Below are positions 4,722 to 64,000 of a stretch of DNA of 64,000 nt, in pieces. The notes beneath the pieces were generated by a model that did no database searches, had not been told where the DNA came from, and saw nothing but the letters and a program-made list of their open reading frames with translations. Where the stretch lies: positions 114,458 to 178,457 of the forward strand of contig CAZDFQ010000001.1 in NCBI GenBank assembly GCA_964505005.1. Direction: 5' to 3'. The stretch's first letter is position 1; each line of letters begins with the position of its first letter. The translations under genes were made by a program, and so were the position numbers. Source of the DNA: an uncultured Candidatus Saccharibacteria bacterium (GTDB lineage: Bacteria > Patescibacteriota > Minisyncoccia > UBA6257 > 2-01-FULL-56-20).

Positions 4722-5036
4722 TCATTTTATTTCAAAATTTTCGAATTTTCCAGTCCGCCTGCCTGCCGGCAGGCAGGCTTTGCCGTATGAAAATTCAATC
4801 CGTTCGACATTGGCAAGCGGCGGCCCCTTTTTGCACCATTCCAAAAATCTCTTCAAGTTTTTCTCGTCTCCTTCGGCTTCGATATAAACCGAGCCGTCGT
4901 CTTCATTTCTCGCCAATCCTTTAAGGCCCGACTCGTCGGCTTTAATTTTCGCCGTATGCCTAAAAAATACTCCTTGGACCCGGCCAAAAATTTTAATTCT
5001 AAGAAATTTATCCGCCATATCCTTTTGGATTTTCAA
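4722..5036 (-). CDS. acyP: Acylphosphatase whose C-terminal ~25 codons are encoded by a dispersed repeat (the CCTGCCTGCCGGCAGGCAGG module).
   Basis: Acylphosphatase signature-like VQGVFFR plus G-x-V-x-N-x-x-D-G. The tail ...ACLPAGRRTG is coded by repeat family A. Confidence 0.6.
   Translation of the reverse strand: MKIQKDMADKFLRIKIFGRVQGVFFRHTAKIKADESGLKGLARNEDDGSVYIEAEGDEKNLKRFLEWCKKGPPLANVERIEFSYGKACLPAGRRTGKFENFEIK
4745..4835. repeat. Family A repeat copy (CCTGCCTGCCGGCAGGCAGG module) inside the acyP 3' coding end.
   Basis: The 20-nt perfect palindrome CCTGCCTGCCGGCAGGCAGG plus the ATTGGCAAGCGG arm. Confidence 0.6.
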
Positions 5037-5049
5037 CTTTAACCCCTTA

Positions 5050-5075
5050 TTCTCTAATTCGCTCGAATTAGAGAA
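5050..5075. repeat. Family B palindrome TTCTCTAATTCG-NNN-CGAATTAGAGAA (copy 1 of 6), immediately 3' of the yfiH-like gene stop.
   Basis: 26-nt near-perfect palindrome. The other copies are at 9121-9147, 12976-13000, 14969-14994, 15290-15315 and 41285-41310. Confidence 0.7.
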
Positions 5076-5881: not shown

Positions 5882-5968
5882 ATGAAGCTTCGCTTCATCA
5901 ATCGGTTCGCTCGGCAATCGCAAGAATTTTATATTCTTGTGTTGCCTCGCTGCCGATTGTAGGACGCT
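5882..5968. repeat. Dispersed repeat family A, copy with the GGCAATCGCAAGAAT core (GAAGCTTCGCTTCATCAATCGGTTCGCTC...TCGCTGCCGATTG).
   Basis: Near-identical copy at 28964-29045. The arms CATCAATCGGTTCGCTC and CTCGCTGCCGATTG are related inverted segments. Confidence 0.7.
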
Positions 5969-6582
5969 ATTCGGATGCCGCCTTTCCGCAAAACCGAGAT
6001 TTTGCCGTGAGCCAATTTAATCAGAGCCGACGGCCGGCTGACAACTTTCCCGGCATCCACATAAAAATCAACTTTGCGGCCGAAATATTTTTGCGCTTCT
6101 TTTATGGTTTTGGCCGGCGGCCGACCTTCGATATTCGCACTCGGCGCCACCAGCGGACCGGTTTTCTTCAATAGCTTGCGGAGGTTATCTTGGGCGGGCA
6201 GTCGGAATGCTAATGTCTTTGTTCCGCGATGAAGATGAGTTGAGCGAAGCGCCAATCGCTTATCGCTAATCGGCAAAATCACGCTTACCTTCCCGGGCCA
6301 AATTTCAGCAAGAATTCTGTTTGTATTTCTATCAAGAGAAATTCCGAAGTGCTTCAGCTCTTTTTTCGAACTGACTAAAACAATCATCGGCTTGTCCGGC
6401 CGGCGCCGGCGCAAACGATAAATCCGGCTGACGGCTTTTTGGGAAAACGCCGAGCCGACAATTCCATAGATGGTGTCAGTGGGGATAACGCCGACTCCGC
6501 CCCTCTTCAGAGTTACGGCAACTTTCGAATTGAGTCCTGAAAAAATTTTCATCAGAAGAGTATCAAAATCAGGAGGGCTCAT
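5929..6582 (-). CDS. tsaC: L-threonylcarbamoyladenylate synthase (YrdC/Sua5 domain, TsaC).
   Basis: PTDTIYGI motif and YrdC-domain length. Confidence 0.7.
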   Translation of the reverse strand: MSPPDFDTLLMKIFSGLNSKVAVTLKRGGVGVIPTDTIYGIVGSAFSQKAVSRIYRLRRRRPDKPMIVLVSSKKELKHFGISLDRNTNRILAEIWPGKVSVILPISDKRLALRSTHLHRGTKTLAFRLPAQDNLRKLLKKTGPLVAPSANIEGRPPAKTIKEAQKYFGRKVDFYVDAGKVVSRPSALIKLAHGKISVLRKGGIRIASYNRQRGNTRI

Positions 6583-6585
6583 TTA

Positions 6586-14968: not shown

Positions 14969-14994
14969 TTCTCTAATTCGAGCGAATTAGAGAA
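14969..14994. repeat. Family B palindrome copy overlapping the ArsR-family gene stop.
   Basis: TTCTCTAATTCGAGCGAATTAGAGAA, exact. Confidence 0.7.
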
Positions 14995-15289: not shown

Positions 15290-15315
15290 TTCTCTAATTC
15301 GAGCGAATTAGAGAA
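15290..15315. repeat. Family B palindrome copy 3' of the pgk stop.
   Basis: TTCTCTAATTCGAGCGAATTAGAGAA, exact. Confidence 0.7.
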
Positions 15316-28963: not shown

Positions 28964-29045
28964 ATGAAGCTCTGCTTCATCAATCGGTTCGCTCGGCAAT
29001 CGCAAGAATTTCATATTCTTGTGTCGCCTCGCTGCCGATTGTAGA
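28964..29045. repeat. Family A repeat copy, near-identical to the 5882-5968 copy.
   Basis: ATGAAGCTCTGCTTCATCAATCGGTTCGCTCGGCAATCGCAAGAATTTCATATTCTTGTGTCGCCTCGCTGCCGATTG. Confidence 0.75.
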
Positions 29046-29054
29046 ATGTAGAAT

Positions 29055-41284: not shown

Positions 41285-41310
41285 TTCTCTAATTCGAGCG
41301 AATTAGAGAA
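41285..41310. repeat. Family B palindrome copy 3' of the galT-like gene, next to a tandem octamer repeat.
   Basis: TTCTCTAATTCGAGCGAATTAGAGAA, exact. Confidence 0.7.
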
Positions 41311-49729: not shown

Positions 49730-49773
49730 CTTAGTTAAAAATCTCTAATTTCTAAATCCTAATTTCTAAATAA

Positions 49774-49790
49774 TCCGCCAGGTGGCGGAT
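49774..49790 (-). terminator. Hairpin ATCCGCCAGGTGGCGGAT downstream of the dacA-like gene (minus strand), followed by T-rich sequence.
   Basis: 7-bp GC stem; T-rich sequence follows on the minus strand. Confidence 0.4.
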
Positions 49791-49858
49791 AAATGACCAA
49801 AATCCAAAATTAAAAATTTTTGAAATTTGAATTTTGAGATTGTTTAGGATTTAGGGGT

Positions 49859-52683: not shown

Positions 52684-52905
52684 TAAAGTTCAAAAATCTC
52701 AGCCCGAGGCTGATCCGCCTTTGGCGGAAAAATTAAAAATGACAATCCAAAATCAGAAATTATCAATTTATTAAAATCGGATTTTGAAATTAATACATTT
52801 TGTAATTTTGAATTGTCATTTTCCCGCCAAAGGCGCCTGCCGGCCGGACGGGCAGGAATCCGTCTCGGGCTGAGATTTTTGCATTTTGTATTTTGCATTT
52901 TTATA
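52684..52905. repeat. ~220-bp MITE-like element with long inverted arms (AAATCTCAGCCCGAGG...CCTTTGGCGGGAAAATGACAAT around an AT-rich centre).
   Basis: Left arm 52688-52745 and right arm 52807-52885 are reverse complements with indels. A partial copy lies at 50941-51075. Confidence 0.65.
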
Positions 52906-54223
52906 AGGAGTAATAATTGTTCGCCGGGTCCCAGAACAGCCAGCCGGCAAAATCAGTGGCGGTGCCTGAAGAAGCATTAAAAACATCCTTAACGGCCTGA
53001 ACCTCCTGTTCAATCATCGCTGAATTATAAACGGCGCCCAAATCAAAGGCCTGCAACCACGGCCGTAACTTGGAATTATGAATGATGAATGATGAATTGG
53101 GGATTTGGGCTGTTGTACTTGTCGTGCTCGTTTCATTATTCATAATTCCTGATTCATAATTCTTAAGTCGTTTCAACGCCTGCTCCAATGAATATTTTAT
53201 GACTTCATAAGGATATTTGGCCGGATTTTTATAACCAAGGAACTCTGAAGCATAATGTGAAGGGTAAACCATCGGATCGACATAATCAAAATAGGGATAA
53301 GCATCTTCGATAACTTGACCAATGCCCATATCGTCCCAGTTATCGACAGTGGAGAGTCCAAAAAAGTCGGCTGAAATTTTGGCCTCGGGAAGATTTTCTC
53401 TCAGATAAGCGAAGAAATTTTTAATAATTTTACGACGAGGGATTTTCTGGTCCCAAAAGGGATAACTGATGATACTGAGGTCGCCATCGGAAACAAAACG
53501 GATGTAATCAAAATTTATTTCGTCAAACCCGCGGTTCAAAGCGTCTTTGGCAATGGCGATATTATAATCCCAGACCGGCGGGGCCGCGGCATCCAGCCAA
53601 GCCAATCCCCGCTTATCGGTCCAAACCTTGCCGGTGGTTTTATTTTTAAGCGCCCATTCCGGATGGGCCTTGGCTAAAACCGGGTCCTGAAAAACCGTGA
53701 TTCGGCCGATAACATAGATGTTTTTATCATGAAGTTTTTTAATCAGCGCATTGGGCCTTGAAAGGCGCAGCTGGTTCTCGGCGCCGCTGGCCCTGGCTTC
53801 CGGAACATCCACGGCGTAAGACACATAGCCGGAATAATCTTTTATATCAATTACCACGGCATTGAGCCCTTTTTTAGCGATTAAATCGAGCAAGTAATTC
53901 AATTTTGAATCAGAACCAGCTGACCAGCCTGTCAGATAAATGCCTTTGACGATTTCCGGAGGATTGGTCAGCCGCGGCTGATTAGGAAGGTCATTTGAAG
54001 AATTATTGGAAATTATTGCTGACAAATTTGGGATATTTCGCGAGAGCTCGGTCGAAGTAGGGGTCGAGGCTTCGGGAACATACAAATCCGGAACAGACTG
54101 CCTGATGGCGGCGTTAAGTTCCGAATCCGGATTATCCAAGATAATGATTCGCTGGGGCAAAAACAAAAATAAGCTGACGCCAGCTAAAATAACGACCACT
54201 GAGGCGACTGCTAAAACTTTCAT
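52901..54223 (-). CDS. Putative TIM-barrel glycoside-hydrolase-like protein (DUF4015-like) with an N-terminal TM helix.
   Basis: GIYLTGWSAGS...NAVVIDIKDYSGY pattern; 440 aa. Confidence 0.45.
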   Translation of the reverse strand: MKVLAVASVVVILAGVSLFLFLPQRIIILDNPDSELNAAIRQSVPDLYVPEASTPTSTELSRNIPNLSAIISNNSSNDLPNQPRLTNPPEIVKGIYLTGWSAGSDSKLNYLLDLIAKKGLNAVVIDIKDYSGYVSYAVDVPEARASGAENQLRLSRPNALIKKLHDKNIYVIGRITVFQDPVLAKAHPEWALKNKTTGKVWTDKRGLAWLDAAAPPVWDYNIAIAKDALNRGFDEINFDYIRFVSDGDLSIISYPFWDQKIPRRKIIKNFFAYLRENLPEAKISADFFGLSTVDNWDDMGIGQVIEDAYPYFDYVDPMVYPSHYASEFLGYKNPAKYPYEVIKYSLEQALKRLKNYESGIMNNETSTTSTTAQIPNSSFIIHNSKLRPWLQAFDLGAVYNSAMIEQEVQAVKDVFNASSGTATDFAGWLFWDPANNYYSL

Positions 54224-54248
54224 ATTACAACTAATTCTATTCCACCCC

Positions 54249-55775
54249 TTATTCCCATTCCATGGTGGCCGGCGGCTTATTGGTTATGTCGTAAACAACC
54301 CGATTTACTTCTTTAATCTCATTGGTTATTCGCGTGGAAATTTTTTCTAAAATTGAAAAAGGAATTTCAGCAAAATTAGCGGTCATAGCGTCTTGCGATT
54401 CCACTATCCGCACGACCACGGGGTATTTATAACTTCGTTCGTCGCCCTGGATGCCGACGCTTCTTATCGGCAACAAAACCGCGAAGCTCATCCAGATTTT
54501 TCCCCAAAATCCCGACTTTTTCAACTCATCTTCGATTATTTTACCCGCTTGTCTGACGATTTCTACTTTATCGGGCGTTACCTCGCCGATTATTCTTATT
54601 GCCAAGCCCGGACCCGGAAAAACCTGCCGGCTGATTATTTGTTTCGGCAGACCGATGGCGCGGGCGATTTTCCTTACTTCGTCTTTATATAAGTCTCGGA
54701 GTGGTTCATAAACCTTCAATTTCAAATTTTCGGGAAATCCGCCCACATTGTGATGCGATTTTATTCTTGATGAGTACTTGGTTAAACCGCTTTCAATCCT
54801 GTCCGAATAAATCGTCCCCTGAACAAGAAATTTCGCCTTTTCTTTCTTCGCAATTCTATAAAAAATATCCGCAAAAAGTCTTCCGATAATTTTTCTTTTT
54901 CGCTCCGGAGAAGTGATTCCTTTGAGCGCCCGGAAAAATTGTTTTTCAGCCCGGATAATTTTCAGATTTAAATTTCTTCTCCCAAATGCTCTTTTTATAA
55001 ATTCCGTCTCTCTTTCTCTCATCAAGCCGGTGTCAACATAAACCGCAGTCAAATTTTTTCCGATTGCTCGGCTAACCAAAGCCACGGCAACTGAAGAATC
55101 AACACCGCCGGAAAGACCGATTATGGCTTTATTGCCCCCTATTGTCTCCTGCGCTTCTTTTATAATGTTTCTGACAGTTATTCTCGGCGACAACGATTTT
55201 TTGCACCGGCAAACGCCGGAAACGAAATTTTTTAGGATTTTATCTCCTTTTTCCGTATGGCTTACTTCCGGATGAAACTGGACCCCGAAAATTTTTTTAT
55301 CTCTACTGGCAAAAGCTGCTATTTTTGAATGCTCGGTGCCGGCCAGCGGAGAAAACGATTGGGGAAGCGAGGCGACTATATCGCGGTGATTCATCCAAAC
55401 ATTCAGAGATTTTCCGAGACCAGCCAAAATAGCGACAGAGGTACTGATATTCAGTTTCATCAAGCCGTACTCGCCAGATTTTCCAGACACAATTCGGCCG
55501 CCCATTTTATGGACAATAAGCTGATGGCCGTAGCAAATGCCTAAGATGGGCAAACGAAGTTTTAAGATTTTTCTATCAAATTTCGGGGCATTCTTGTCGT
55601 AGACCGAGCGGGCGCCGCCGGAGAGAACAATCCCTTTTATCTCTTTATCGCTTCCTAATTGACTGGCTGGCACATTTGAAGGAAAAATTTTGGTGGTTGC
55701 TCCAAGGTCTCTGAGCCGGCGCGAAATCAGATGGCAATATTGTCCGCCGAAATCCAAAATGGCGATTTTATCCAT
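54249..55775 (-). CDS. guaA: GMP synthase (glutamine-hydrolysing).
   Basis: N-terminal class I GATase (ILDFGGQY, catalytic Cys ICYGHQ), ATP-PPase SGGVDSSV motif, C-terminal dimerisation domain. Confidence 0.85.
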   Translation of the reverse strand: MDKIAILDFGGQYCHLISRRLRDLGATTKIFPSNVPASQLGSDKEIKGIVLSGGARSVYDKNAPKFDRKILKLRLPILGICYGHQLIVHKMGGRIVSGKSGEYGLMKLNISTSVAILAGLGKSLNVWMNHRDIVASLPQSFSPLAGTEHSKIAAFASRDKKIFGVQFHPEVSHTEKGDKILKNFVSGVCRCKKSLSPRITVRNIIKEAQETIGGNKAIIGLSGGVDSSVAVALVSRAIGKNLTAVYVDTGLMRERETEFIKRAFGRRNLNLKIIRAEKQFFRALKGITSPERKRKIIGRLFADIFYRIAKKEKAKFLVQGTIYSDRIESGLTKYSSRIKSHHNVGGFPENLKLKVYEPLRDLYKDEVRKIARAIGLPKQIISRQVFPGPGLAIRIIGEVTPDKVEIVRQAGKIIEDELKKSGFWGKIWMSFAVLLPIRSVGIQGDERSYKYPVVVRIVESQDAMTANFAEIPFSILEKISTRITNEIKEVNRVVYDITNKPPATMEWE

Positions 55776-55880
55776 ATTTGCTTTTGTAGATTATAACTTG
55801 GCAGTTGCTGAAAGCAACGATTTACCGTAAAATAAATCCGTTCAGGATTTAGAACTTAGAGATTAGAGATTTTAATTGAT

Positions 55881-56984
55881 ATGGCTTTGGCGCTCTACCG
55901 CAAATATCGGCCGAAAAAACTCGACGAACTGTTAGGCCAGGAAACCAATGTCGAGATTCTCAAAAACGCTGCCAGCCAGAACCGGCTGGGTCAGGCCTAT
56001 CTTTTCTACGGTCCAAGAGGCACGGGTAAAACCACCACGGCCCGGCTGATTGCCAAACTGTTGAACTGCGAGCGCCGGCACCAAGACCCGGAATTCCAGA
56101 AACTCGGCGAACCCTGCAATGAATGCCGGAGTTGCAAAGAAATCGACTCTAATATTTCATTCGATGTCGTGGAAATCGACGCGGCTTCGAACCGCGGCAT
56201 TGACGAAATCCGGAATCTTAAAGAAAGCGTCAAAACCGCGCCGGTCGGCAGCCGATTCAAGGTCTACATCATTGACGAAGCCCATATGCTGACTGGTCCG
56301 GCTTTTAATGCGCTTTTAAAAACCCTGGAAGAGCCGCCAGCGCATGCCATTTTCGTGCTGGCGACCACGGAATACGAAAAAATGCCGGCCACGATTACTT
56401 CGCGCGCTCAGCGCTTTCTTTTTAGAAAACTTCCCAAAGCAAAGATTCTTGAAAAACTCACTGGTATCGCCAAGGCGGAAAAAATTGACATTGAACCAGC
56501 GGCCTTAGAGTTGGTGGCGGCCGCGGCTGAAGGCAGTTTCCGCGACGCCGAATCGCTGCTTGACCAAATCAGCTCGTTCCATTCCAAAATCGATTTGCCA
56601 ACCGCCGAACGACTGACTGGCCGGACTGGTTTCAAAAAAATCGAGGAACTGGCCGAACTTATCGTCAAAAACAATCTCCAGGGCTCGCTCGACTATCTTT
56701 TACAAATCAACGAAGAGGGGCACAACCTCATCCAGCTGACCAAAGACCTGATTCATTATTTAAGAAAGATTCTCTCGCTTAAACTTAATCCAAATCTGGA
56801 AAAAATTTTTGAACTGGAGCTGACCTCGGACGAAATTCTCCGTCTAAAAAAAATGACGCTTCACGCTGAGCCGGCAAAAATAATCAAACTGCTCAAGGCC
56901 TTCATCCGCGCTTATTCAGAAATGCGCTACAGTCCGTTTTTGACAATCCCCTTGGAGATTGCCTTAATAGAAAATCTGTCTTGA
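55881..56984 (+). CDS. dnaX: DNA polymerase III gamma/tau subunit (short form, domains I-III only).
   Basis: Walker A GPRGTGKTT, zinc module CNECRSCKEI, SRC motif region; 367 aa. Confidence 0.75.
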   Translation: MALALYRKYRPKKLDELLGQETNVEILKNAASQNRLGQAYLFYGPRGTGKTTTARLIAKLLNCERRHQDPEFQKLGEPCNECRSCKEIDSNISFDVVEIDAASNRGIDEIRNLKESVKTAPVGSRFKVYIIDEAHMLTGPAFNALLKTLEEPPAHAIFVLATTEYEKMPATITSRAQRFLFRKLPKAKILEKLTGIAKAEKIDIEPAALELVAAAAEGSFRDAESLLDQISSFHSKIDLPTAERLTGRTGFKKIEELAELIVKNNLQGSLDYLLQINEEGHNLIQLTKDLIHYLRKILSLKLNPNLEKIFELELTSDEILRLKKMTLHAEPAKIIKLLKAFIRAYSEMRYSPFLTIPLEIALIENLS

Positions 56985-56993
56985 ACGAAGCTA

Positions 56994-58505
56994 TTACCAC
57001 TGACTCGCCGAGTTCTGCGGCGTGGGCGCGGCCGAAATATGAAAAGAATTGCTGCTCCAAGAATCGCGGACATAGCTTTCATCTTTGGGAATCTCGTTCC
57101 AGCTAACTTCATCGGTTTTGACGCCGCCTGAATCATAAAGAATAACGGCGTTTTGGGTGTAAGCCAGGGTGTAGGATTTGGGCCATAAAACATCGGGAGT
57201 CAGCGGCAGTGTAGCGCTGGCATTGGCTGCCAAAAAGTAGTGGTTTGGCAGGATTTTCAAACCCTCCAACCGCGAAGCGGCGACCAAAATTGATTCTGAG
57301 CCGGTCGAGCTTCGTTTTTTGATGGACCAGCCAGTTAAATCAATCGCCTGGCTGCCGGCATTATAAAGTTCCACAAATTCGTCATAAGAACTAACGTTGC
57401 TGCCAGCCATTATTTCGCTTATCAGAATGCGGCTGGCTAGAATCTGGCTGCCGCTGCTGACAGCCGAAGAATTTTGCGTTCCAGTAGCCGTCGTTGAGGC
57501 GGTGTTATTATCAATTGTTGAGGCCGGAATTTCTGACTGGGGCATCGACGTTACCGACCCTGAAATTTCAAATGCCATTGTATTTTCCGCTTTGGGCGTG
57601 CCGCCGGGGTTGGCACTCGTGTGCCAGCTCAAATCCAAGAAACTTCGTTCCATTGTCTTCTTGGCAGAGTTATCGCCGGCCGGCCATTTTTTGGAAGCAT
57701 CTATTTCGTCAGCTAGTTCGCATTCCGGCGAAAAAATTTTCAGCCGGACACCGCTGTTCGCCAGGGCGCCGCTATAAATTTTATCTGCCGGAACATTCGG
57801 CGCCGAATTGTCGTCGCTTCTTTCCAAAAGAAAAAGTCCGCCGGCTTTCAAATAATCTTTTTCTTCAAAAATAATTTTTATATTTTCATCGCTTGATAAA
57901 ATATGCCAGCTGGCCAAACTCAAATCGCGGCCGGAATTATTTTTCAGTTCCAGCCATTCATCGCCGCTGTTTTCTTTACTGCCCATCCAAGCGAGCTCGC
58001 TGAACAAAATTTTGTGGCTAGGAGATTGGACAACTGAAAAATTGCAAGCGACCGATGACGATTTTTTATTTTCCGAATTTTCGGAAATAGTCGTTTCTGG
58101 AACCGAGGCGCTTGAAGAAGAACTATTTTTATTGACGCTCGATTTAGTATCAGAATTTTCTGAAAATGAATTTAGGTTATTAGATTTTCCGGCAACCGAT
58201 TTCCCAAGAGCTCTTGTTGACAAAAATTTGTTTTCTCCAACAGAAACAGAACTACTTGCTTCCCTATTTTCTCCCAAATCAATTTCCATCGCCGGTTTAT
58301 TCTCCCCGGCTGAAAATATCTCCTTGAATGTTCCGGAAACAAGTCCGGCGGTCCGCTGAAAAAAATTTTGCGAACTATCAGCCGAAGAAAATTTCCACGA
58401 AACAAAGGCGATGGAAACGATAAACAATCCTCCCAAAATAACGACCAGGGCCAAAGCCGAAACCCCGGCCCGCCGAAAATTACTTTTTTCTGCCAGTTCC
58501 GGCAT
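56994..58505 (-). CDS. Secreted or membrane-anchored protein with two lamin-tail domains (LTD).
   Basis: N-terminal TM helix, then a Ser/Asn-rich linker. Two LTD-like motifs are present: LFSELAWMG...DEWLELKNNSGRDLSLASW and ILISEIMAG...DEFVELYNAGSQAIDLTGW. Confidence 0.6.
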   Translation of the reverse strand: MPELAEKSNFRRAGVSALALVVILGGLFIVSIAFVSWKFSSADSSQNFFQRTAGLVSGTFKEIFSAGENKPAMEIDLGENREASSSVSVGENKFLSTRALGKSVAGKSNNLNSFSENSDTKSSVNKNSSSSSASVPETTISENSENKKSSSVACNFSVVQSPSHKILFSELAWMGSKENSGDEWLELKNNSGRDLSLASWHILSSDENIKIIFEEKDYLKAGGLFLLERSDDNSAPNVPADKIYSGALANSGVRLKIFSPECELADEIDASKKWPAGDNSAKKTMERSFLDLSWHTSANPGGTPKAENTMAFEISGSVTSMPQSEIPASTIDNNTASTTATGTQNSSAVSSGSQILASRILISEIMAGSNVSSYDEFVELYNAGSQAIDLTGWSIKKRSSTGSESILVAASRLEGLKILPNHYFLAANASATLPLTPDVLWPKSYTLAYTQNAVILYDSGGVKTDEVSWNEIPKDESYVRDSWSSNSFHISAAPTPQNSASQW

Positions 58506-58559
58506 AAATTTAAGAAATTTCCCCTAAAATTAACCGCCGAAAAACTTTTATCTATTTTA

Positions 58560-58740
58560 CAATCGGCAGCGAGGCAACACAAGAATAAGTAAATTCTTGC
58601 GATTGCCGAGCGAACCGATTGATGAAACGAAGTTTCATTCAATCGGCAGCGAGAAGAAAGCAAATGAGAATATATTTGTTTTTGACGAGCCCTGCCTGCC
58701 GGCGGACAGGGAGCCGATTGATGAAGTTAAAGTTTCATGA
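58560..58740. repeat. Two tandem family A copies (one of each core type) in reverse orientation.
   Basis: AATCGGCAGCGAGGCAACACAAGAAT...CGAGCGAACCGATTGATGAAACGAAG is followed by AATCGGCAGCGAGAAGAAAG...CCTGCCTGCCGGCGGACAGGGAGCCGATTGATGAAG. Confidence 0.7.
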
Positions 58741-58818
58741 GATAGCCCCCGATTTTCTCAAAAACCTCGAAGTCGCCATTGCCGAGCAACTTATCTCCGG
58801 CACATCTTACCCGCTTTA

Positions 58819-58857
58819 CTATTACTAAATCACAATTGTGATTTAATAATAGTAATT
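58819..58857. promoter_or_regulatory. Family D element (core CACAATTGTG) in the divergent intergenic region between the LTD gene and nrdJ.
   Basis: CTATTACTAAATCACAATTGTGATTTAATAATAGTAATT. Confidence 0.35.
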
Positions 58858-59241
58858 TTGCCTCTGCTTCTATTTCTGTCTAGGTCTGTTTAGGCAAAAA
58901 AGACCAACGGTGGCTTTCCTTCTTCTAAAAATCTCCTCGGTCTCAGTTTCTTCCTTATTATAAGGCAGGGCTCAGACAAATTTTGCGACAAATCAGAACA
59001 AAAAATGACTTTAAAAGGCCTTGGAGCCAGCCGAAATGGGAAATTCGTTCTTTTTTCCAATAAAAATTTCGAAGAAGTCGATAAATTTCGACTTAATTCT
59101 TGGCAGCGGAGAAAAATTTTGCCAATTATCCAGAAAAATGTTTTTCTATGACTTTTTGGGGAAAAATCCCTCTTGATTTCGCTGAGCCGGAAAGTGGTAA
59201 AATGAAAGCCGAAAGGTTTAAAGAAAATTTCTCGCCTCGCC

Positions 59242-62200
59242 ATGAAAGAAACGAAAAAAAAATTTCAATCAACCGCCGCTCAGCCGAACCACCGCTGGTT
59301 AACTGAAGCTGAAATGGGAAAAGTCAACGCCTCATTTTCGGAAAACGCCCTGAAAATGATGAAAAAGCGCTATCTTCTGACTGATGACAGCGGTCGCCAA
59401 GAAACGCCGGCAGAAATGTTTCATCGCGTGGCCCAGGCTTTAGCCCAGGTTGAAAAAAAATACGGTCATGATGATAAGTTTGTCGACAAAACTGAAAAAG
59501 AATTTTTCGAAATTCTGTCAAAAAAAGAATACACCCCAGCCGGCCGAACTTTAACCAATGTCGGCGGACCAACGCCGCTCGTCGCCAACTGCATCGTTCT
59601 GCCGATAATGGACTCGATGGAGAGTATTTTTCAGACCCTGAAGGACGCGGCTCTTCTTCAGCAGGCTGGTTCGGGACTGGGTTTTGATTTTTCCCATTTG
59701 CGGCCGGCCATGTCGCCCACCAAAAAATCGCGCGGTGTTTCTTCGGGCCCGGTTTCCTTTTTGAAAGTTTATGACGCGGCTTTCGGAACCATCAAGCAGC
59801 AGGGGCGGCACGGCGCCAATATGGCGATGATGGATGTCCGGCATCTTGATATTCTGGATTTCATCCGCGCCAAAAAAATTGAGGGCGAAATAAGAAATTT
59901 CAACATCTCAGTCAAGCTCACCGACGAGTTTATGAAAAAACTACTCGAGAGTCCGGACGAAAAATGGCTCGGCGAATGGAACGGCCAGAAAATGAAACCT
60001 CACAAAGTTCTCCGCGCGCCGAACGGCTCGGTCTTCGCTGCCGAAGAAATCGACATCACGGTCAAAGAAATTTTTGACGAAATCGTCAATTACGCCTGGT
60101 TGAACGGCGAACCGGGAATCGTTTTCATCGACGAAGTCAATCGCACCAACCCTCTGCCCGGTCTCGGCCCCATCGACTGCTCCAATCCTTGTGTAATTGG
60201 CGAAACATTGGTGGCGACAGAAAGAGGATTCATCAAGATGGAGGAACTTGCAGAAAGTTATGTTTCAGGCGGAATTAAAATTTCAGTTGATAACCGCCTG
60301 CCGAAAGCAGTGAAAATTTCCTCGTTAAACAGGATCTCAATCAGTCAAGGAGGAACAATTCGCGAAACAATGCCGCTGATTGATTTCTCTCGATTAGGAA
60401 GCGCATCTGGAGAAATGCTCCGCGCTTTTCCAACCGGCATTAAACCAGTATATAAACTAACCACCAAATCCGGTTATGAACTGGAGGCCACTGCTGACCA
60501 TAAAATATTTACGCCCCGGGGGAAAGTGCCACTTCTCGAATTGAGAGCTGGCGATAAAGTTCTCATCCAATCAAATGAAGGGCTATGGAACAATGATTTT
60601 CAACTGCCTTTCGATTATCCGAATGTAATTGAAGGCAAAAACAGACATATTTACCACTACAATTTCCCGAAAACTTGGAGCAAAGAGTTGGGCCGAGTTC
60701 TCGGCTGGCTTATTGGCGACGGCTGGCTCAGAGACAAAAAGCGCGAATACGCGGTTGGTTTTACATTTTCCGAAGACGATAAGGAGGTGATGAGCGAATT
60801 TAGAGATATTTTGAACGATTGGTATAAAAACAGCGAGCGAAAAGAGATTAAAAGGAAAAATGACGTCTATCATCTGATATATGGTTCAAAGGACTTTGTG
60901 GAGTTTTTCAAAAAACTTGGCGTTAAACCAGTTTTGGCAGCAGAAAAAGAAGTGCCCGCCTCTTTGTGGCGAGCGCCGGCCGAGGCGGTCAGCGGATTTC
61001 TGCAAGGCATTTTCAGTGCCGATGGCACAATCAACATCTATGAAAAAAATCAGACGCGCTACATCCGCTTAACGTCAAAATCAGAGAAATTACTCAAACA
61101 AATTCAAATTCTTCTTATCAACTTCGGCATTCGCTCAACGATTTATAACAGAACAAGAAAACCGCGGCTGGCTTTCGGTTATAAAAACGACGGTATTTTA
61201 TATGAGCTGGAAATTTCCCGCGATAACATACCTATTTTTCTGAGTAAAATCGGTTTCCTTGGAACGCATTACAAAGTTAAAGCCAAAACGCTTAAAGAAA
61301 AATCGTATTACCGAGAATATTTTGAAGACAAAATAGAAAAAATTAAATATATCGGTAAAAAGAGGGTTTACGATTTGACTGAAGCAACCACGCATTCATT
61401 TATCGCTAACGGCATCATCATCTCAAATTGCGGCGAACAATTTTTGCATCACTACGACAACTGCAACCTTGGCTCCATCAATTTAGCGGCTTTCGTTAAA
61501 GACGGTCGCGTGGACTGGGGCCAGCTGCGCCGCGTAACGAGAATCGCCGCACGGCTGATGGACAACGTTATTGACATTTTTGATTTTCCGATTCAGCAGG
61601 TCACTGACCTCGCGAGAAAAAACCGGCGCATCGGCCTCGGCATTATGGGTTTTGCCGATATGCTTTATCAGCTGGGTATTGCCTACAACTCCCCGGAAGG
61701 GCAGAAGTTGGCCGAAAAAACAATGAGAACCATTACGGAAACAGCCCACCAGATGTCCCAGGAACTCGCCAAAGAAAAAGGCGCTTTCCCGAATTTACCT
61801 TTGAGCGTTTTTGCCAAGAAAAAAATTAAAATGCGCAATGCGGCCCTGACCACCGTGGCGCCAACCGGTTCAATCTCGATGATGCTTGATTGTTCCTCGG
61901 GCGTGGAGCCGAATTTCGCCCTCTCTTATGTCAAGCAGGACAAAGACGGCCACCAGTATCACTATTTCAACCGCTATTTCGAACAAGCGCTCAAAAAATA
62001 CCAATTCAGCGAAGCTAAAATAAAAGAAATCAAAGATGAAATAATCAAGACCGGCAGCATCCAACGCCTGACCGACCTAGCCGAAGAACTGCGGCGAACC
62101 TTCGTGGTGGCTATGGATATTTCGGCCGAAGACCACATCAAGATGCAGGCCAGTTTCCAGCGTTATGTGGACAATTCCATTTCCAAAACCATCAACTTTC

Positions 62201-62967
62201 CCAATTCCGCAACCAAAGAAGATGTGTTCACGGGTTTTGTGCTGGCTTGGAAAATGAAGTGCAAGGCCTGCACTGTTTACCGCGATGCGAGCCGCGAAGT
62301 GCAGATTTTGAACCTCGGCACCGGCGAAAACATCAAGGCGCCGACCGAACTCGGGGCTAAAAAATCCGCCGAGGCGCCGCTTCAGATTCCGGCTGACAAG
62401 AACCGCCTGGAAGCCCGGCAGCGGCCCGAAGTGCTGACCGGCAAAACCTACCGGATGAAAACCGGCTACGGCAATCTTTATGTGACCATCAATAACGACG
62501 AGAAAGGAGTGCCGTTCGAGGTCTTCGCGGTTATTGGTAAGAGTGGCGGATTTTTCCAAGAGCAAAGCGAAGGCATCTGCCGACTGATTTCGCTTTCTCT
62601 CCGGACCGGCGTAAAAATCGAAGAAATCATCGACAACTTAAAAGGCATCCGCGGACCTATGCCGACCATCACCGACAAAGGCACGATTCTCTCCCTGCCG
62701 GATGCCATCGGTCAAATCCTGGAAGAGCATGCGCGGACCAACGGCGGCCACAATCCCCTTCTTCAGGAGCATTCGCCCACTGAGCCGATGATGCTTCAAG
62801 AAAAAGAACCGGCCAATGTCGCGGCTTTGCCCCAGAGCTACGAGGCCTCCAAAAAATCGCTAGCTGATTACGGATTTATGCCCGGCTGTCCGGACTGCGG
62901 CGCACCGCTGATTATGAGCGAGGGTTGTCTAAGCTGCCGCAGCTGCGGATTTACAAGATGCTTCTAA
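59242..62967 (+). CDS. nrdJ: Class II (adenosylcobalamin-dependent) ribonucleotide reductase NrdJ, interrupted by an intein and ending in a C-terminal zinc ribbon.
   Basis: Exteins splice to ...SNP|CGEQ... (the NPCGEQ catalytic motif). RNR ten-strand barrel motifs; C-terminal CPDCGAPL...CLSCRSC. 1241 aa including a 413-aa intein. Confidence 0.8.
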   Translation: MKETKKKFQSTAAQPNHRWLTEAEMGKVNASFSENALKMMKKRYLLTDDSGRQETPAEMFHRVAQALAQVEKKYGHDDKFVDKTEKEFFEILSKKEYTPAGRTLTNVGGPTPLVANCIVLPIMDSMESIFQTLKDAALLQQAGSGLGFDFSHLRPAMSPTKKSRGVSSGPVSFLKVYDAAFGTIKQQGRHGANMAMMDVRHLDILDFIRAKKIEGEIRNFNISVKLTDEFMKKLLESPDEKWLGEWNGQKMKPHKVLRAPNGSVFAAEEIDITVKEIFDEIVNYAWLNGEPGIVFIDEVNRTNPLPGLGPIDCSNPCVIGETLVATERGFIKMEELAESYVSGGIKISVDNRLPKAVKISSLNRISISQGGTIRETMPLIDFSRLGSASGEMLRAFPTGIKPVYKLTTKSGYELEATADHKIFTPRGKVPLLELRAGDKVLIQSNEGLWNNDFQLPFDYPNVIEGKNRHIYHYNFPKTWSKELGRVLGWLIGDGWLRDKKREYAVGFTFSEDDKEVMSEFRDILNDWYKNSERKEIKRKNDVYHLIYGSKDFVEFFKKLGVKPVLAAEKEVPASLWRAPAEAVSGFLQGIFSADGTINIYEKNQTRYIRLTSKSEKLLKQIQILLINFGIRSTIYNRTRKPRLAFGYKNDGILYELEISRDNIPIFLSKIGFLGTHYKVKAKTLKEKSYYREYFEDKIEKIKYIGKKRVYDLTEATTHSFIANGIIISNCGEQFLHHYDNCNLGSINLAAFVKDGRVDWGQLRRVTRIAARLMDNVIDIFDFPIQQVTDLARKNRRIGLGIMGFADMLYQLGIAYNSPEGQKLAEKTMRTITETAHQMSQELAKEKGAFPNLPLSVFAKKKIKMRNAALTTVAPTGSISMMLDCSSGVEPNFALSYVKQDKDGHQYHYFNRYFEQALKKYQFSEAKIKEIKDEIIKTGSIQRLTDLAEELRRTFVVAMDISAEDHIKMQASFQRYVDNSISKTINFPNSATKEDVFTGFVLAWKMKCKACTVYRDASREVQILNLGTGENIKAPTELGAKKSAEAPLQIPADKNRLEARQRPEVLTGKTYRMKTGYGNLYVTINNDEKGVPFEVFAVIGKSGGFFQEQSEGICRLISLSLRTGVKIEEIIDNLKGIRGPMPTITDKGTILSLPDAIGQILEEHARTNGGHNPLLQEHSPTEPMMLQEKEPANVAALPQSYEASKKSLADYGFMPGCPDCGAPLIMSEGCLSCRSCGFTRCF
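60190..61428 (+). mobile_element. Intein (413 aa) with a LAGLIDADG homing-endonuclease domain, inserted at the catalytic Cys of the NPCGEQ motif of NrdJ.
   Basis: It starts CVIGETLVAT and ends ...GIIISN, followed by Cys. Endonuclease motifs are LGWLIGDGWL and LQGIFSADGTI. The frame is continuous with the exteins. Confidence 0.75.
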
Positions 62968-62977
62968 TCTGCTGAAC

Positions 62978-63077
62978 AAATCTCAAAATTCTAATCTCTA
63001 ATTTCTAAACAATATCAAATTCATAATTTCAAATTTCAAAAATTGTTTAGAGATTAGGATTTAGAGATTAGAAATTT
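62978..63077. repeat. Imperfect inverted repeat built from CTAATCTCTAA(A)TTTCTAAACAAT arms, 3' of nrdJ. Related segments lie at 49741-49770, 49835-49860 and 55845-55878.
   Basis: Left arm CTAATCTCTAATTTCTAAACAAT and right arm ATTGTTTAGAGATTAGGATTTAGAGATTAG. Confidence 0.5.
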
Positions 63078-63095
63078 CCGATAATGCCCCAGGAT

Positions 63096-63122
63096 GAAAA
63101 ATCCGCCCCAGGCGGATTTTTC
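63096..63122. terminator. Terminator hairpin downstream of nrdJ (AAAAATCCGCC-CCAG-GGCGGATTTTT).
   Basis: Perfect stem flanked by an A-run and a T-run; could act bidirectionally. Confidence 0.6.
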
Positions 63123-63151
63123 ATTTACCGGAACTTGGCGAGGGAGTTTGA

Positions 63152-63259
63152 CCCCGCACCTTTTCCAGAAACAATTTTGCTTTTACACGATTTAAAGACG
63201 GAGTCGCCTATCGGCTCTGAAAATGCCTAGGCACTATCTCTGCTAGAAAAGGTGCGGGG
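63152..63259. ncRNA. Candidate structured RNA (~108 nt) closed by a 14-bp perfect helix (CCCCGCACCTTTTC / GAAAAGGTGCGGGG), between the nrdJ terminator and tRNA-Asn. Its identity and strand are unknown.
   Basis: A long perfect closing stem encloses a ~80-nt interior containing the smaller palindrome TGCCTAGGCA. It lies in a non-coding gap next to a tRNA. Confidence 0.3.
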
Positions 63260-63296
63260 TTTGAAAAATTTTGTGGAGTTGGTAAAATTTCCGTAT

Positions 63297-63371
63297 TCCG
63301 GCGTAGCACAACGGTAGTGCGGCTCCCTGTTAAGGAGAGGGTTGTAGGTTCGAATCCTACCGCCGGAGCCA
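63297..63371 (+). tRNA. tRNA-Asn (anticodon GTT), CCA-encoded.
   Basis: Acceptor stem TCCGGCG/CGCCGGA, D-arm TAGCACAACGGTAGTGC, anticodon loop CTGTTAA, T-arm GGTTCGAATCC, 3' GCCA. Confidence 0.8.
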
Positions 63372-63748
63372 TAAAGCTAGATACGAGCTCTGAATTTTGA
63401 GATGAAAGTGTTCGCTCGCGGGCAAAAAATGGAGGGGTTTTAGGGAGAGGAAACGCCTTGCCCGCGAGCGTAGTCCCGCCGCCCGCGCGTAGCGCTGAAC
63501 CGAGCAGAAAAATTGTTTTTTCCTTTTAGAAGAATTTTTTGGTGGCGCGCGCAAAGAAAAAATGTAAAGATAATTTTTCTGCGAGGCTGGCCGCGGTTCA
63601 ACGGAGGTTTCGCTCTTGCCCGTCCGTAGCTTTAGCGAAGGCGGGTTTTGGATCTGTGTATCAGGTTTGGTAAAATAATTTTAAAAGCATGCCCCGTAGG
63701 GAATTTATTCTCCTTCAGGGTTTAGGCGGAAATTAAATCGGGAGTCAA

Positions 63749-64000
63749 ATGACAAAAAGAGTACTCATTGCTGTTATCGTACTCTTCCTCGCCACCGCGA
63801 GCGGCTATTTCTATTGGCGCCTGACGCGCCCGGAGCCGGTCGCCTGCACGCTCGACGCCAAACAGTGCCCCGACGGCTCTTGGGTCGGCCGCGTAGTGCC
63901 CAAGTGCGAATTCGCCGTCTGCCCGGCTCCGGATATGGACATCTCAAGCTGGAAGTCAAAAACGACCGCCGAGGGCGTGAGCTTCCGCTATCCGGAAAAG
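63749..64000 (+). CDS. Partial CDS (5' end only; continues beyond the window) encoding an N-terminally membrane-anchored, Cys-containing protein in high-GC DNA.
   Basis: RBS GGGAG 5 nt upstream of the ATG. The 84 codons to the window edge contain no stop. A hydrophobic N-terminus (VLIAVIVLFLATASGYFYW) follows. GC-rich third positions contrast with the rest of the window. Confidence 0.5.
   Translation, partial: MTKRVLIAVIVLFLATASGYFYWRLTRPEPVACTLDAKQCPDGSWVGRVVPKCEFAVCPAPDMDISSWKSKTTAEGVSFRYPEK

Follow-up and report, generated by a model that had tools for sequence, protein, structure and literature searches.

The high-pathogenicity island of Yersinia and E. coli is linked to an asn-tRNA gene. 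In Prochlorococcus, tycheposons combine an integrase with full-length and partial tRNAs, a minority of them employing a large serine recombinase (10.1101/2020.12.28.424599). The locus considered here lies towards the end of a 64-kb stretch of DNA (the window, i.e. the whole stretch that was analysed) and resembles tRNA-linked islands and tycheposons in its position directly 3′ of a tRNA gene, that for asparagine, and in that this flank varies among related genomes, some of which have a recombinase gene abutting the tRNA or a partial copy of the tRNA. The present genome differs in having no integrase, no partial tRNA and no mobility genes, and in that only 1.3 kb of its sequence is odd in composition. 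Phage-type large serine recombinases (PHROG 95; Pfam Resolvase, Recombinase and Zn_ribbon_recom) occur at the equivalent position in four related contigs (L010, L011, L068 and L069), but are absent from the window and from a 9.3-kb extension of it. The arrangement in L069, where the recombinase gene lies between ~155-bp inverted repeats, differs from the usual attL/attR arrangement. The interval is nothing categorically new, being another tRNA-adjacent variable region; tRNA-adjacent hotspots are little described in this phylum.

We consider it probable (about 0.7) that the DNA 3′ of tRNA-Asn is an ordinary chromosomal stretch, in which the trailer of the tRNA and a spacer lead to a resident gene for a surface protein, in a member of the Patescibacteria (CPR; Paceibacteria/Liptonbacteria-like). 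The original prediction had proposed either an integrated foreign element or an assembly junction. According to the preferred reading, tRNA-Asn, with its own promoter-like site, would be followed by a 377-bp non-coding spacer with three stem-loops, which separates it from the coding sequence, and then by a promoter region, a ribosome-binding site and the surface-protein gene (Table 1). The apparent GC shift would reflect the GC-rich stem of one hairpin together with the GC-rich coding sequences of a 302-aa gene and the adjacent small gene, over ~1.3 kb, past which the composition of the genome would be back to normal. The spacer hairpins may contribute to the termination of the tRNA transcript or to its 3′ processing, and may shield the downstream gene. 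No integration machinery is tied to tRNA-Asn in this genome; the position directly 3′ of it is variable at the level of the lineage. Counter to the ordinary reading are that the 1.3-kb segment is a compositional outlier, with a gene whose GC3 is above that of every full-length gene of the window, that no relative has a homologue of this gene beside its tRNA-Asn, and that the closest lineage carries a recombinase at exactly this position.

Table 1. Features at and beyond the 3′ flank of tRNA-Asn (window positions; L070 is the contig that extends the window)
Feature	Positions	Strand	Basis
Promoter-like site, TTGAAA-16 nt-TAAAAT with TG extension	63261-63288	+	Consensus scan, 10/12 matches
tRNA-Asn, anticodon GTT	63297-63371	+	ARAGORN; Rfam RF00005, 66.6 bits vs threshold 29
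GC-rich hairpin	63413-63470	.	Perfect 13-bp stem, 63413-63425 with 63458-63470; fold
AT-rich imperfect palindrome with GC core	63504-63582	.	24-nt arms, 83% complementary; -26.2 kcal/mol, z = -2.1
Weak terminator-like hairpin, GCCCGTC...GGCGGG then TTTT	63618-63654	+	Read from sequence
Ribosome-binding site GGGAG, 4 nt 5′ of ATG	63740-63744	+	Read from sequence
302-aa gene, first 84 codons in window	63749-64000	+	Translation; full-length protein P0127
L070 downstream genes: small ORFs of unknown function; LexA-like repressor/DNA methyltransferase fusion; two unknown genes			
L070 downstream genes, continued: DUF3175; ATP-cone protein; YggU/DUF167; conserved 99-aa gene; ABC transporter; PspC			

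The tRNA gene that the original prediction had placed at 63297-63371 was recovered by both ARAGORN and the Rfam model, and is the sole tRNA in the window. The promoter-like site ends 9 nt before it and, as judged by its consensus match alone, is a putative promoter. The GC-rich hairpin that had been noted at 63413-63470 is likewise present; its perfect stem has a GC content of 0.77 and closes a 32-nt loop with a small inner stem, and its predicted fold (-33.7 kcal/mol) is significant with respect to shuffled sequences (z = -3.2; 1 of 200 shuffles as good). As a GC-rich perfect stem in non-coding DNA 3′ of a gene, it is similar to intrinsic terminators and REP-like palindromes, but differs from them in being single-copy and in having a long loop and no U-tract; no T-run follows it on either strand, and it is not the short stem-loop plus U-tract of an intrinsic terminator. 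The fold of the terminator-like hairpin further downstream (-14.9 kcal/mol, z = -0.7) is no better than those of shuffles, and a simple terminator scan made no calls, at this hairpin or elsewhere. Perfect stems of at least 11 bp number 15 in the window, versus ~0.2 in shuffles; since this genome abounds in perfect palindromes between its genes, a hairpin 3′ of tRNA-Asn is in character. Two minus-strand ORFs, at 63357-63554 and 63440-63601, match nothing in Pfam and are unlikely to be genes. The possibility that the GC-rich hairpin is a collapsed inverted-repeat pair of an element of the type present in L069 was rejected, there being no sequence similarity.

The GC content of the whole window, taken as background, is 0.449, and values per kb range from 0.36 to 0.52 and those of gene GC3 from 0.30 to 0.64, i.e. 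varied composition is normal for this genome. The AT-rich intergenic DNA described 5′ of the tRNA is borne out by a GC content of 0.37 over 62950-63296. The claim of an abrupt shift to strongly GC-rich DNA from about 63400 stands in so far as it points to a GC-rich hairpin and coding sequence, but not in terms of a continuous block, because successive 100-bp segments 3′ of the tRNA have GC contents of 0.62, 0.40, 0.48, 0.43, 0.70 and 0.58. The shift is two local peaks, one at the hairpin (which accounts for the value of 0.62 at 63401-63500) and the other at the start of the gene, with AT-rich spacer between them. Over 63372-64000 as a whole the GC content is 0.526, which is at the 97th percentile among 629-bp windows of the stretch; the maximum for the 64 kb on this scale (0.566, starting at 62280) is within the upstream ribonucleotide reductase (RNR) gene, the 3′ end of which, 1 kb upstream, equals the tRNA-Asn flank in GC richness. 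The first 84 codons from 63749 have a GC content of 0.60 and a GC3 of 0.75; the latter ranks within the top 0.4% for windows of 84 codons inside genes, and is also reached by the RNR gene, at 62278. Since GC is patchy and the RNR gene is equally GC-rich, "abrupt shift to high-GC DNA" is an overstatement, although the sequence features underlying it are real. The comparison of tetranucleotide usage that had been recommended places 63372-64000 at the unremarkable 12th percentile among same-size chunks.

The partial plus-strand coding sequence with GC-rich third positions that was described from 63749 is supported by its ribosome-binding site and by its GC3. When the 84-residue fragment was used as query in an exhaustive HMMER search, a 302-aa protein, P0127, was identified, which is 100% identical to it over residues 1-84; a word-index protein search with the same fragment returned only small proteins sharing a motif. 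The full gene, at 226-1134 of the extending contig L070, ends at window-equivalent position 64657 and has a GC content of 0.58 and a GC3 of 0.69, the latter higher than that of all 52 full-length ORFs called in the window (maximum 0.64) and of 12 of the 13 other genes on L070, the exception being a 99-aa gene at L070 9067-9366 (0.72). Its values at the first and second codon positions (GC1 0.54, GC2 0.50), in a protein rich in Cys, Pro, Gly and Ala, imply that the GC excess is partly driven by the protein. The protein comprises an N-terminal membrane anchor, one copy of a Cys motif (C-x2-DAKQCPDGSWVGR-x3-PKCEF-x2-CP, residues 32-58) and then a domain of unknown function. The motif is of the form C-x2-[DE]A[KM]xCPDGSxVGRxxPxCEFxxCP, placed after an N-terminal membrane anchor, as is found in a large family, for which 6,518 cluster representatives match at E ≤ 0.001, and 751 at E ≤ 1e-10; many of them carry the motif more than once, and a protein may have up to 11 copies. 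No Pfam model matched these secreted or anchored Cys-repeat "CPDGS" proteins, examples of which were aligned by eye, and for the 302-aa protein there were no relatives in IMG/VR and no match to a PHROG family. P0187 and other relatives that share this architecture are interpreted here as CPR-type proteins, and the family looks typical of Patescibacteria. The gene for P0187 has no adjoining tRNA and is located beside a type I restriction-modification system.

Two Logan contigs contain the gene for P0127, i.e. L070 (9,777 bp, from run SRR5161805) and L071 (SRR5161795), both of which start at 63524, in the left arm of the palindrome at 63504-63582. L070 matches window positions 63524-64000 at 100% identity and adds 9.3 kb past the window end. 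It is very probably the continuation of the source contig, given the identical overlap of 477 bp and that three proteins list the same NCBI contig, of 222,204 bp, which is the longest listed for each of them, i.e. for DnaX (window 55881-56984), P0127 and a 99-aa protein encoded on L070. A search of metagenome contigs with a 30-mer from the window end gave no match. When calculated per 250 bp, GC contents of 0.49-0.60 are confined to window-equivalent positions 63774-65023; the rise extends over ~1.3 kb, corresponding to the 302-aa gene and an adjacent 99-aa gene (GC ~0.56), to window-equivalent ~65042. After this segment the GC content is 0.34-0.50 for ~4 kb and then fluctuates near the genome mean. 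In tetranucleotide usage, the 1.3-kb segment correlates with the window at 0.53, which places it in the bottom 1% among chunks of its size, whereas the value for the next 8.3 kb (L070 1514-9777) is 0.966, compared with 0.972 +/- 0.011 for the null, i.e. host-like; only the 1.3 kb is atypical.

The conserved 99-aa protein of L070 has 360 homologues at E ≤ 1e-5, the named ones being from Patescibacteria. The LexA-like fusion (502 aa; L070 2138-3646, minus strand; window-equivalent 65661-67169) combines a LexA DNA-binding domain and an S24 peptidase with a type II N6/N4 DNA methyltransferase; it could represent a restriction-modification module that is linked to the SOS response or regulates itself. 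A protein of like architecture (475 aa, 36% identical) is encoded near the conserved 99-aa gene in two other contigs, L073 and L074, where the fusion gene adjoins one for an Endonuclease_7/His-Me nuclease.

With respect to the island proposed at tRNA-Asn, an integrase and an att repeat are both missing over the 9.3 kb downstream. No integrase or recombinase is encoded among the 14 genes of L070; there are no phage or mobility genes in the 9.3 kb, no tRNA genes on the extension and no recombinase domain in any ORF of 63372-64000, and a tblastn search of the window for a recombinase remnant gave a spurious 13-residue match over the tRNA itself. The check for a direct repeat of the tRNA 3′ end, using its last 45 nt, found no 25-mer (≤3 mismatches) and no 16-mer (≤1 mismatch) from 10 kb upstream to 9.3 kb downstream, where the search range ends; the 16-mer search recovers an 18-nt repeat of this kind in a related contig (L003). 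Repeats linking the spacer to the DNA after the GC-rich genes, which would point to a cassette with repeats at its flanks, were looked for and are absent. The extent of the GC rise, which had been named beforehand as a ground for dismissing the island, is limited to the ~1.3 kb and its two small genes. Because the GC rise is local and there is neither an integrase nor an att repeat, the island does not withstand the refutation test put forward with it, and an integrated island is not supported in this genome. The wider idea that the tRNA is an integration site holds in part, in that there is no sign of an element at the tRNA in this genome but the 3′ flank of tRNA-Asn is a hotspot in relatives.

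The order RNR then tRNA-Asn is kept in at least 15 related loci, in which the tRNA-Asn that follows RNR is 76-91% identical to that of the window. The RNR gene (59242-62967) encodes an adenosylcobalamin-dependent (class II) enzyme and is interrupted by a LAGLIDADG intein; the closest RNR proteins, which are 73-79% identical in amino acid sequence, are from metagenome-assembled genomes of Candidatus Liptonbacteria, Paceibacterota and other Patescibacteria. DNA similarity to every relative ends at the tRNA 3′ end, and the genes downstream of it differ in all of these (at least 15) loci, of which the nearest has an RNR just 79% identical; in none of the relatives is there a homologue of the 302-aa protein downstream of tRNA-Asn. 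In the closest lineage (L010, L068 and L069; RNR 79% identical) and in L011, a gene for a large serine recombinase lies on the minus strand with its 3′ end over that of tRNA-Asn. The L011 recombinase matches the phage integrase family phrog_95 (6.5e-75), and relatives of that in L069 are located at the ends of IMG/VR viral contigs. Partial copies of the tRNA are present in L003, as an 18-nt direct repeat of its 3′ end ~205 bp downstream, and in L022, as a 50-nt partial tRNA-Asn 28 bp after the contig's own tRNA (L022 4727-4803). Four contigs (L001, L017, L020 and L023) end within 90 bp of the tRNA, and groups of relatives share right-flank genes at differing distances from it. L016 shares the conserved 99-aa gene (69% identity), at a distance from the tRNA of 8.9 kb in L016 and 6.5 kb in the present genome, and the genes between the tRNA and the 99-aa gene in L016 are unrelated to those on L070. 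The recombinase genes, partial tRNA copies, contig ends and varied genes in relatives together indicate, from comparison of sequences, that the tRNA-Asn 3′ flank is a genuine hotspot of integration and variability in this lineage.

The recombinase gene at L069 4717-6497 (present also in L010 and L068) encodes a complete protein of 511 aa with Resolvase, Recombinase and Zn ribbon domains. The inverted repeats that enclose it (4752-4906 and 6352-6497) are 95-96% identical, and the proximal one includes the last 7 nt of tRNA-Asn. That the sites are inverted, not direct, suggests an invertible or unusual transposon-like unit rather than the standard attL/attR of a prophage. The fragment in L022, the genome of which has a GC content of 29%, is identical at 49 of 50 positions to the tRNA-Asn of L001 (L001 13441-13475), from a genome of 47% GC, and is preceded by an 18-mer, TGGTGCGGGGTAAATGCC, also present directly 3′ of the L001 tRNA; the fragment has the look of a trace left by an element in passing from one distant member of the Patescibacteria to another. 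In L027 (1783-2042), a group I intron of ~180 nt (RF00028, 69.1 bits vs 50) is located in the anticodon loop of tRNA-Asn, and the split tRNA is missed by ARAGORN.

The most serious competitor of the ordinary reading, though we think it doubtful, is that horizontal transfer into the hotspot brought in either the two GC-rich genes (~63749-65042) or the entire 6.5 kb that reach to the conserved 99-aa gene. The result would be an old islet without an integrase, its recombinase and att repeat having since been lost or decayed. Both the tetranucleotide usage of the 1.3-kb segment and the GC3 of the 302-aa gene are in keeping with this possibility, but part of the GC excess comes from protein composition, as GC1 and GC2 attest. 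Both GC-rich genes are missing from this position in every relative, and L016 shares the left flank and the right anchor with entirely different genes intervening; the relatives are distant, however, such that loss of gene order may be ordinary drift, and the right anchor is a single small gene, which in the L001/L075 genome has another location. Also in favour are the relatives in which the tRNA-Asn 3′ end is overlapped by a gene for a large serine recombinase, those with partial tRNA copies and the four contigs that stop near the tRNA; set against these are the 9.3 kb downstream, with their lack of an integrase, att repeat, phage gene or mobility gene. The neighbourhood of the LexA-methyltransferase and 99-aa genes recurs in L073 and L074, implying that part of the 6.5 kb is ancestral. 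A bolder version of horizontal acquisition, for which we have similarly low expectations, is that the tRNA-Asn 3′ flank is a landing pad throughout the Paceibacteria/Liptonbacteria-like lineage and that the GC-rich two-gene cassette is stranded cargo of a former element. It is equally tentative that this cassette would consist of the Cys-repeat surface protein and a 99-aa zinc-ribbon-like protein, and the suggestion that the former element was like those still intact in sister lineages, with a gene for a phage-type large serine recombinase overlapping the tRNA end, is as speculative.

An assembly junction was the other proposal of the original prediction, and we regard a chimeric join, in which the tRNA side would be wrongly connected to the gene side within 63372-63524, as very unlikely. 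It is true that two independent Logan assemblies (SRR5161805 and SRR5161795) start a contig at exactly 63524, that relatives' contigs often break directly 3′ of tRNA-Asn, and that no Logan protein covers 58621-63523, the RNR protein being unrecorded and its best homologue 79% identical. Logan contigs also break at 58620, however, and since that break falls in a 65-nt repeat with three copies in the window, the breaks are better ascribed to branching of the assembly graph than taken as evidence of a misjoin. The same two runs hold contigs identical to window 52704-58620 (5.6-5.9 kb, ending at 58620), such that both flanks are present at 100% identity in each run; the 222,204-bp NCBI contig is listed for DnaX as well as for the 302-aa and 99-aa proteins; the composition downstream matches that of the window; and the window reads through 63524 without anomaly. 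We give similarly little credence to the idea that the spacer at 63372-63660 is a small structured RNA or a REP/MITE-like palindromic element rather than a plain tRNA trailer. The significant fold of the GC-rich hairpin, the wealth of intergenic palindromes in the window and the resemblance of one arm of the 65-nt repeat (GTTCGCTCGGCAA) to a hairpin arm (GTTCGCTCGCGGGCAA) are compatible with such an element; but Rfam found in the spacer only the tRNA and sub-threshold noise, with no other family at E ≤ 1, the z-score for the fold of the whole spacer is only -1.4 for the plus strand and -2.4 for the minus strand, the spacer does not recur within the window or L070, and the spacer is conserved in none of the more than 70 related loci fetched.

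If the ordinary chromosomal reading is correct, the window needs no annotation here beyond tRNA-Asn followed by a surface-protein gene, and the flagged interval itself matters little. More broadly in the lineage, it appears that reduced CPR genomes retain at least one tRNA-linked hotspot at which recombinase-bearing elements come and go and at which assemblies tend to break; this knowledge bears on how these symbionts gain surface proteins and defence genes, as well as on how the completeness and contiguity of CPR metagenome-assembled genomes are judged. Were the cassette to be stranded cargo, the locus would be the seed of a tycheposon-like island, and this in bacteria whose ultra-small genomes are commonly regarded as having few mobile elements.

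The clearest mobile DNA near the tRNA-Asn flank is the RNR intein (~60380-61430), of ~350-400 aa, with Pfam Intein_splicing and LAGLIDADG_3 domains and a GC content of 0.30-0.44; the closest RNR homologues found, at 795-870 aa, are from their length without it. The RNR gene is preceded by ~735 bp (58506-59241) with no convincing ORF and no Rfam match at the gathering threshold, an unusually long gap for a compact genome. The RNR stop codon is followed by a long, AT-rich inverted repeat (62979-63082), the arms of which recur near 49740-49830, 41231 and 55848, then a textbook bidirectional terminator at 63094-63124 (ATGAAAAATCCGCC-CCA-GGCGGATTTTTCAT, z = -6.4) and, 5′ of the tRNA promoter, a 112-nt structured element at 63150-63261 (-45.3 kcal/mol, z = -5.3), which belongs to no Rfam family and has an 18-bp closing stem (ACCCCGCACCTTTTCCAG / CTAGAAAAGGTGCGGGGT). 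In L001, L003 and L011, protein-coding genes are located between RNR and the tRNA, those in L001 and L003 being GGDEF-like as judged by eye.

Palindromes of several types are also present elsewhere in the window. Perfect intergenic examples are, among others, at 5050-5075, 14969-14994, 15290-15315 and 41285-41310, a palindrome of the form TTCTCTAATTCG-NN-CGAATTAGAGAA has four copies, and two 19-bp AT-rich palindromes are at 6583 and 7515. A palindromic intergenic repeat of ~65 nt (TTCATCAATCGGTTCGCTCGGCAATCGCAAGAATTT...ATTCTTGTGTTGCCTCGCTGCCGATTGTA) occurs at 58554-58620 (minus strand), 28982-29047 (plus strand) and 5900-5961 (plus strand); its copies are 94-95% identical, a Logan contig (L007) ends inside one of them, and the repeat looks REP- or MITE-like.
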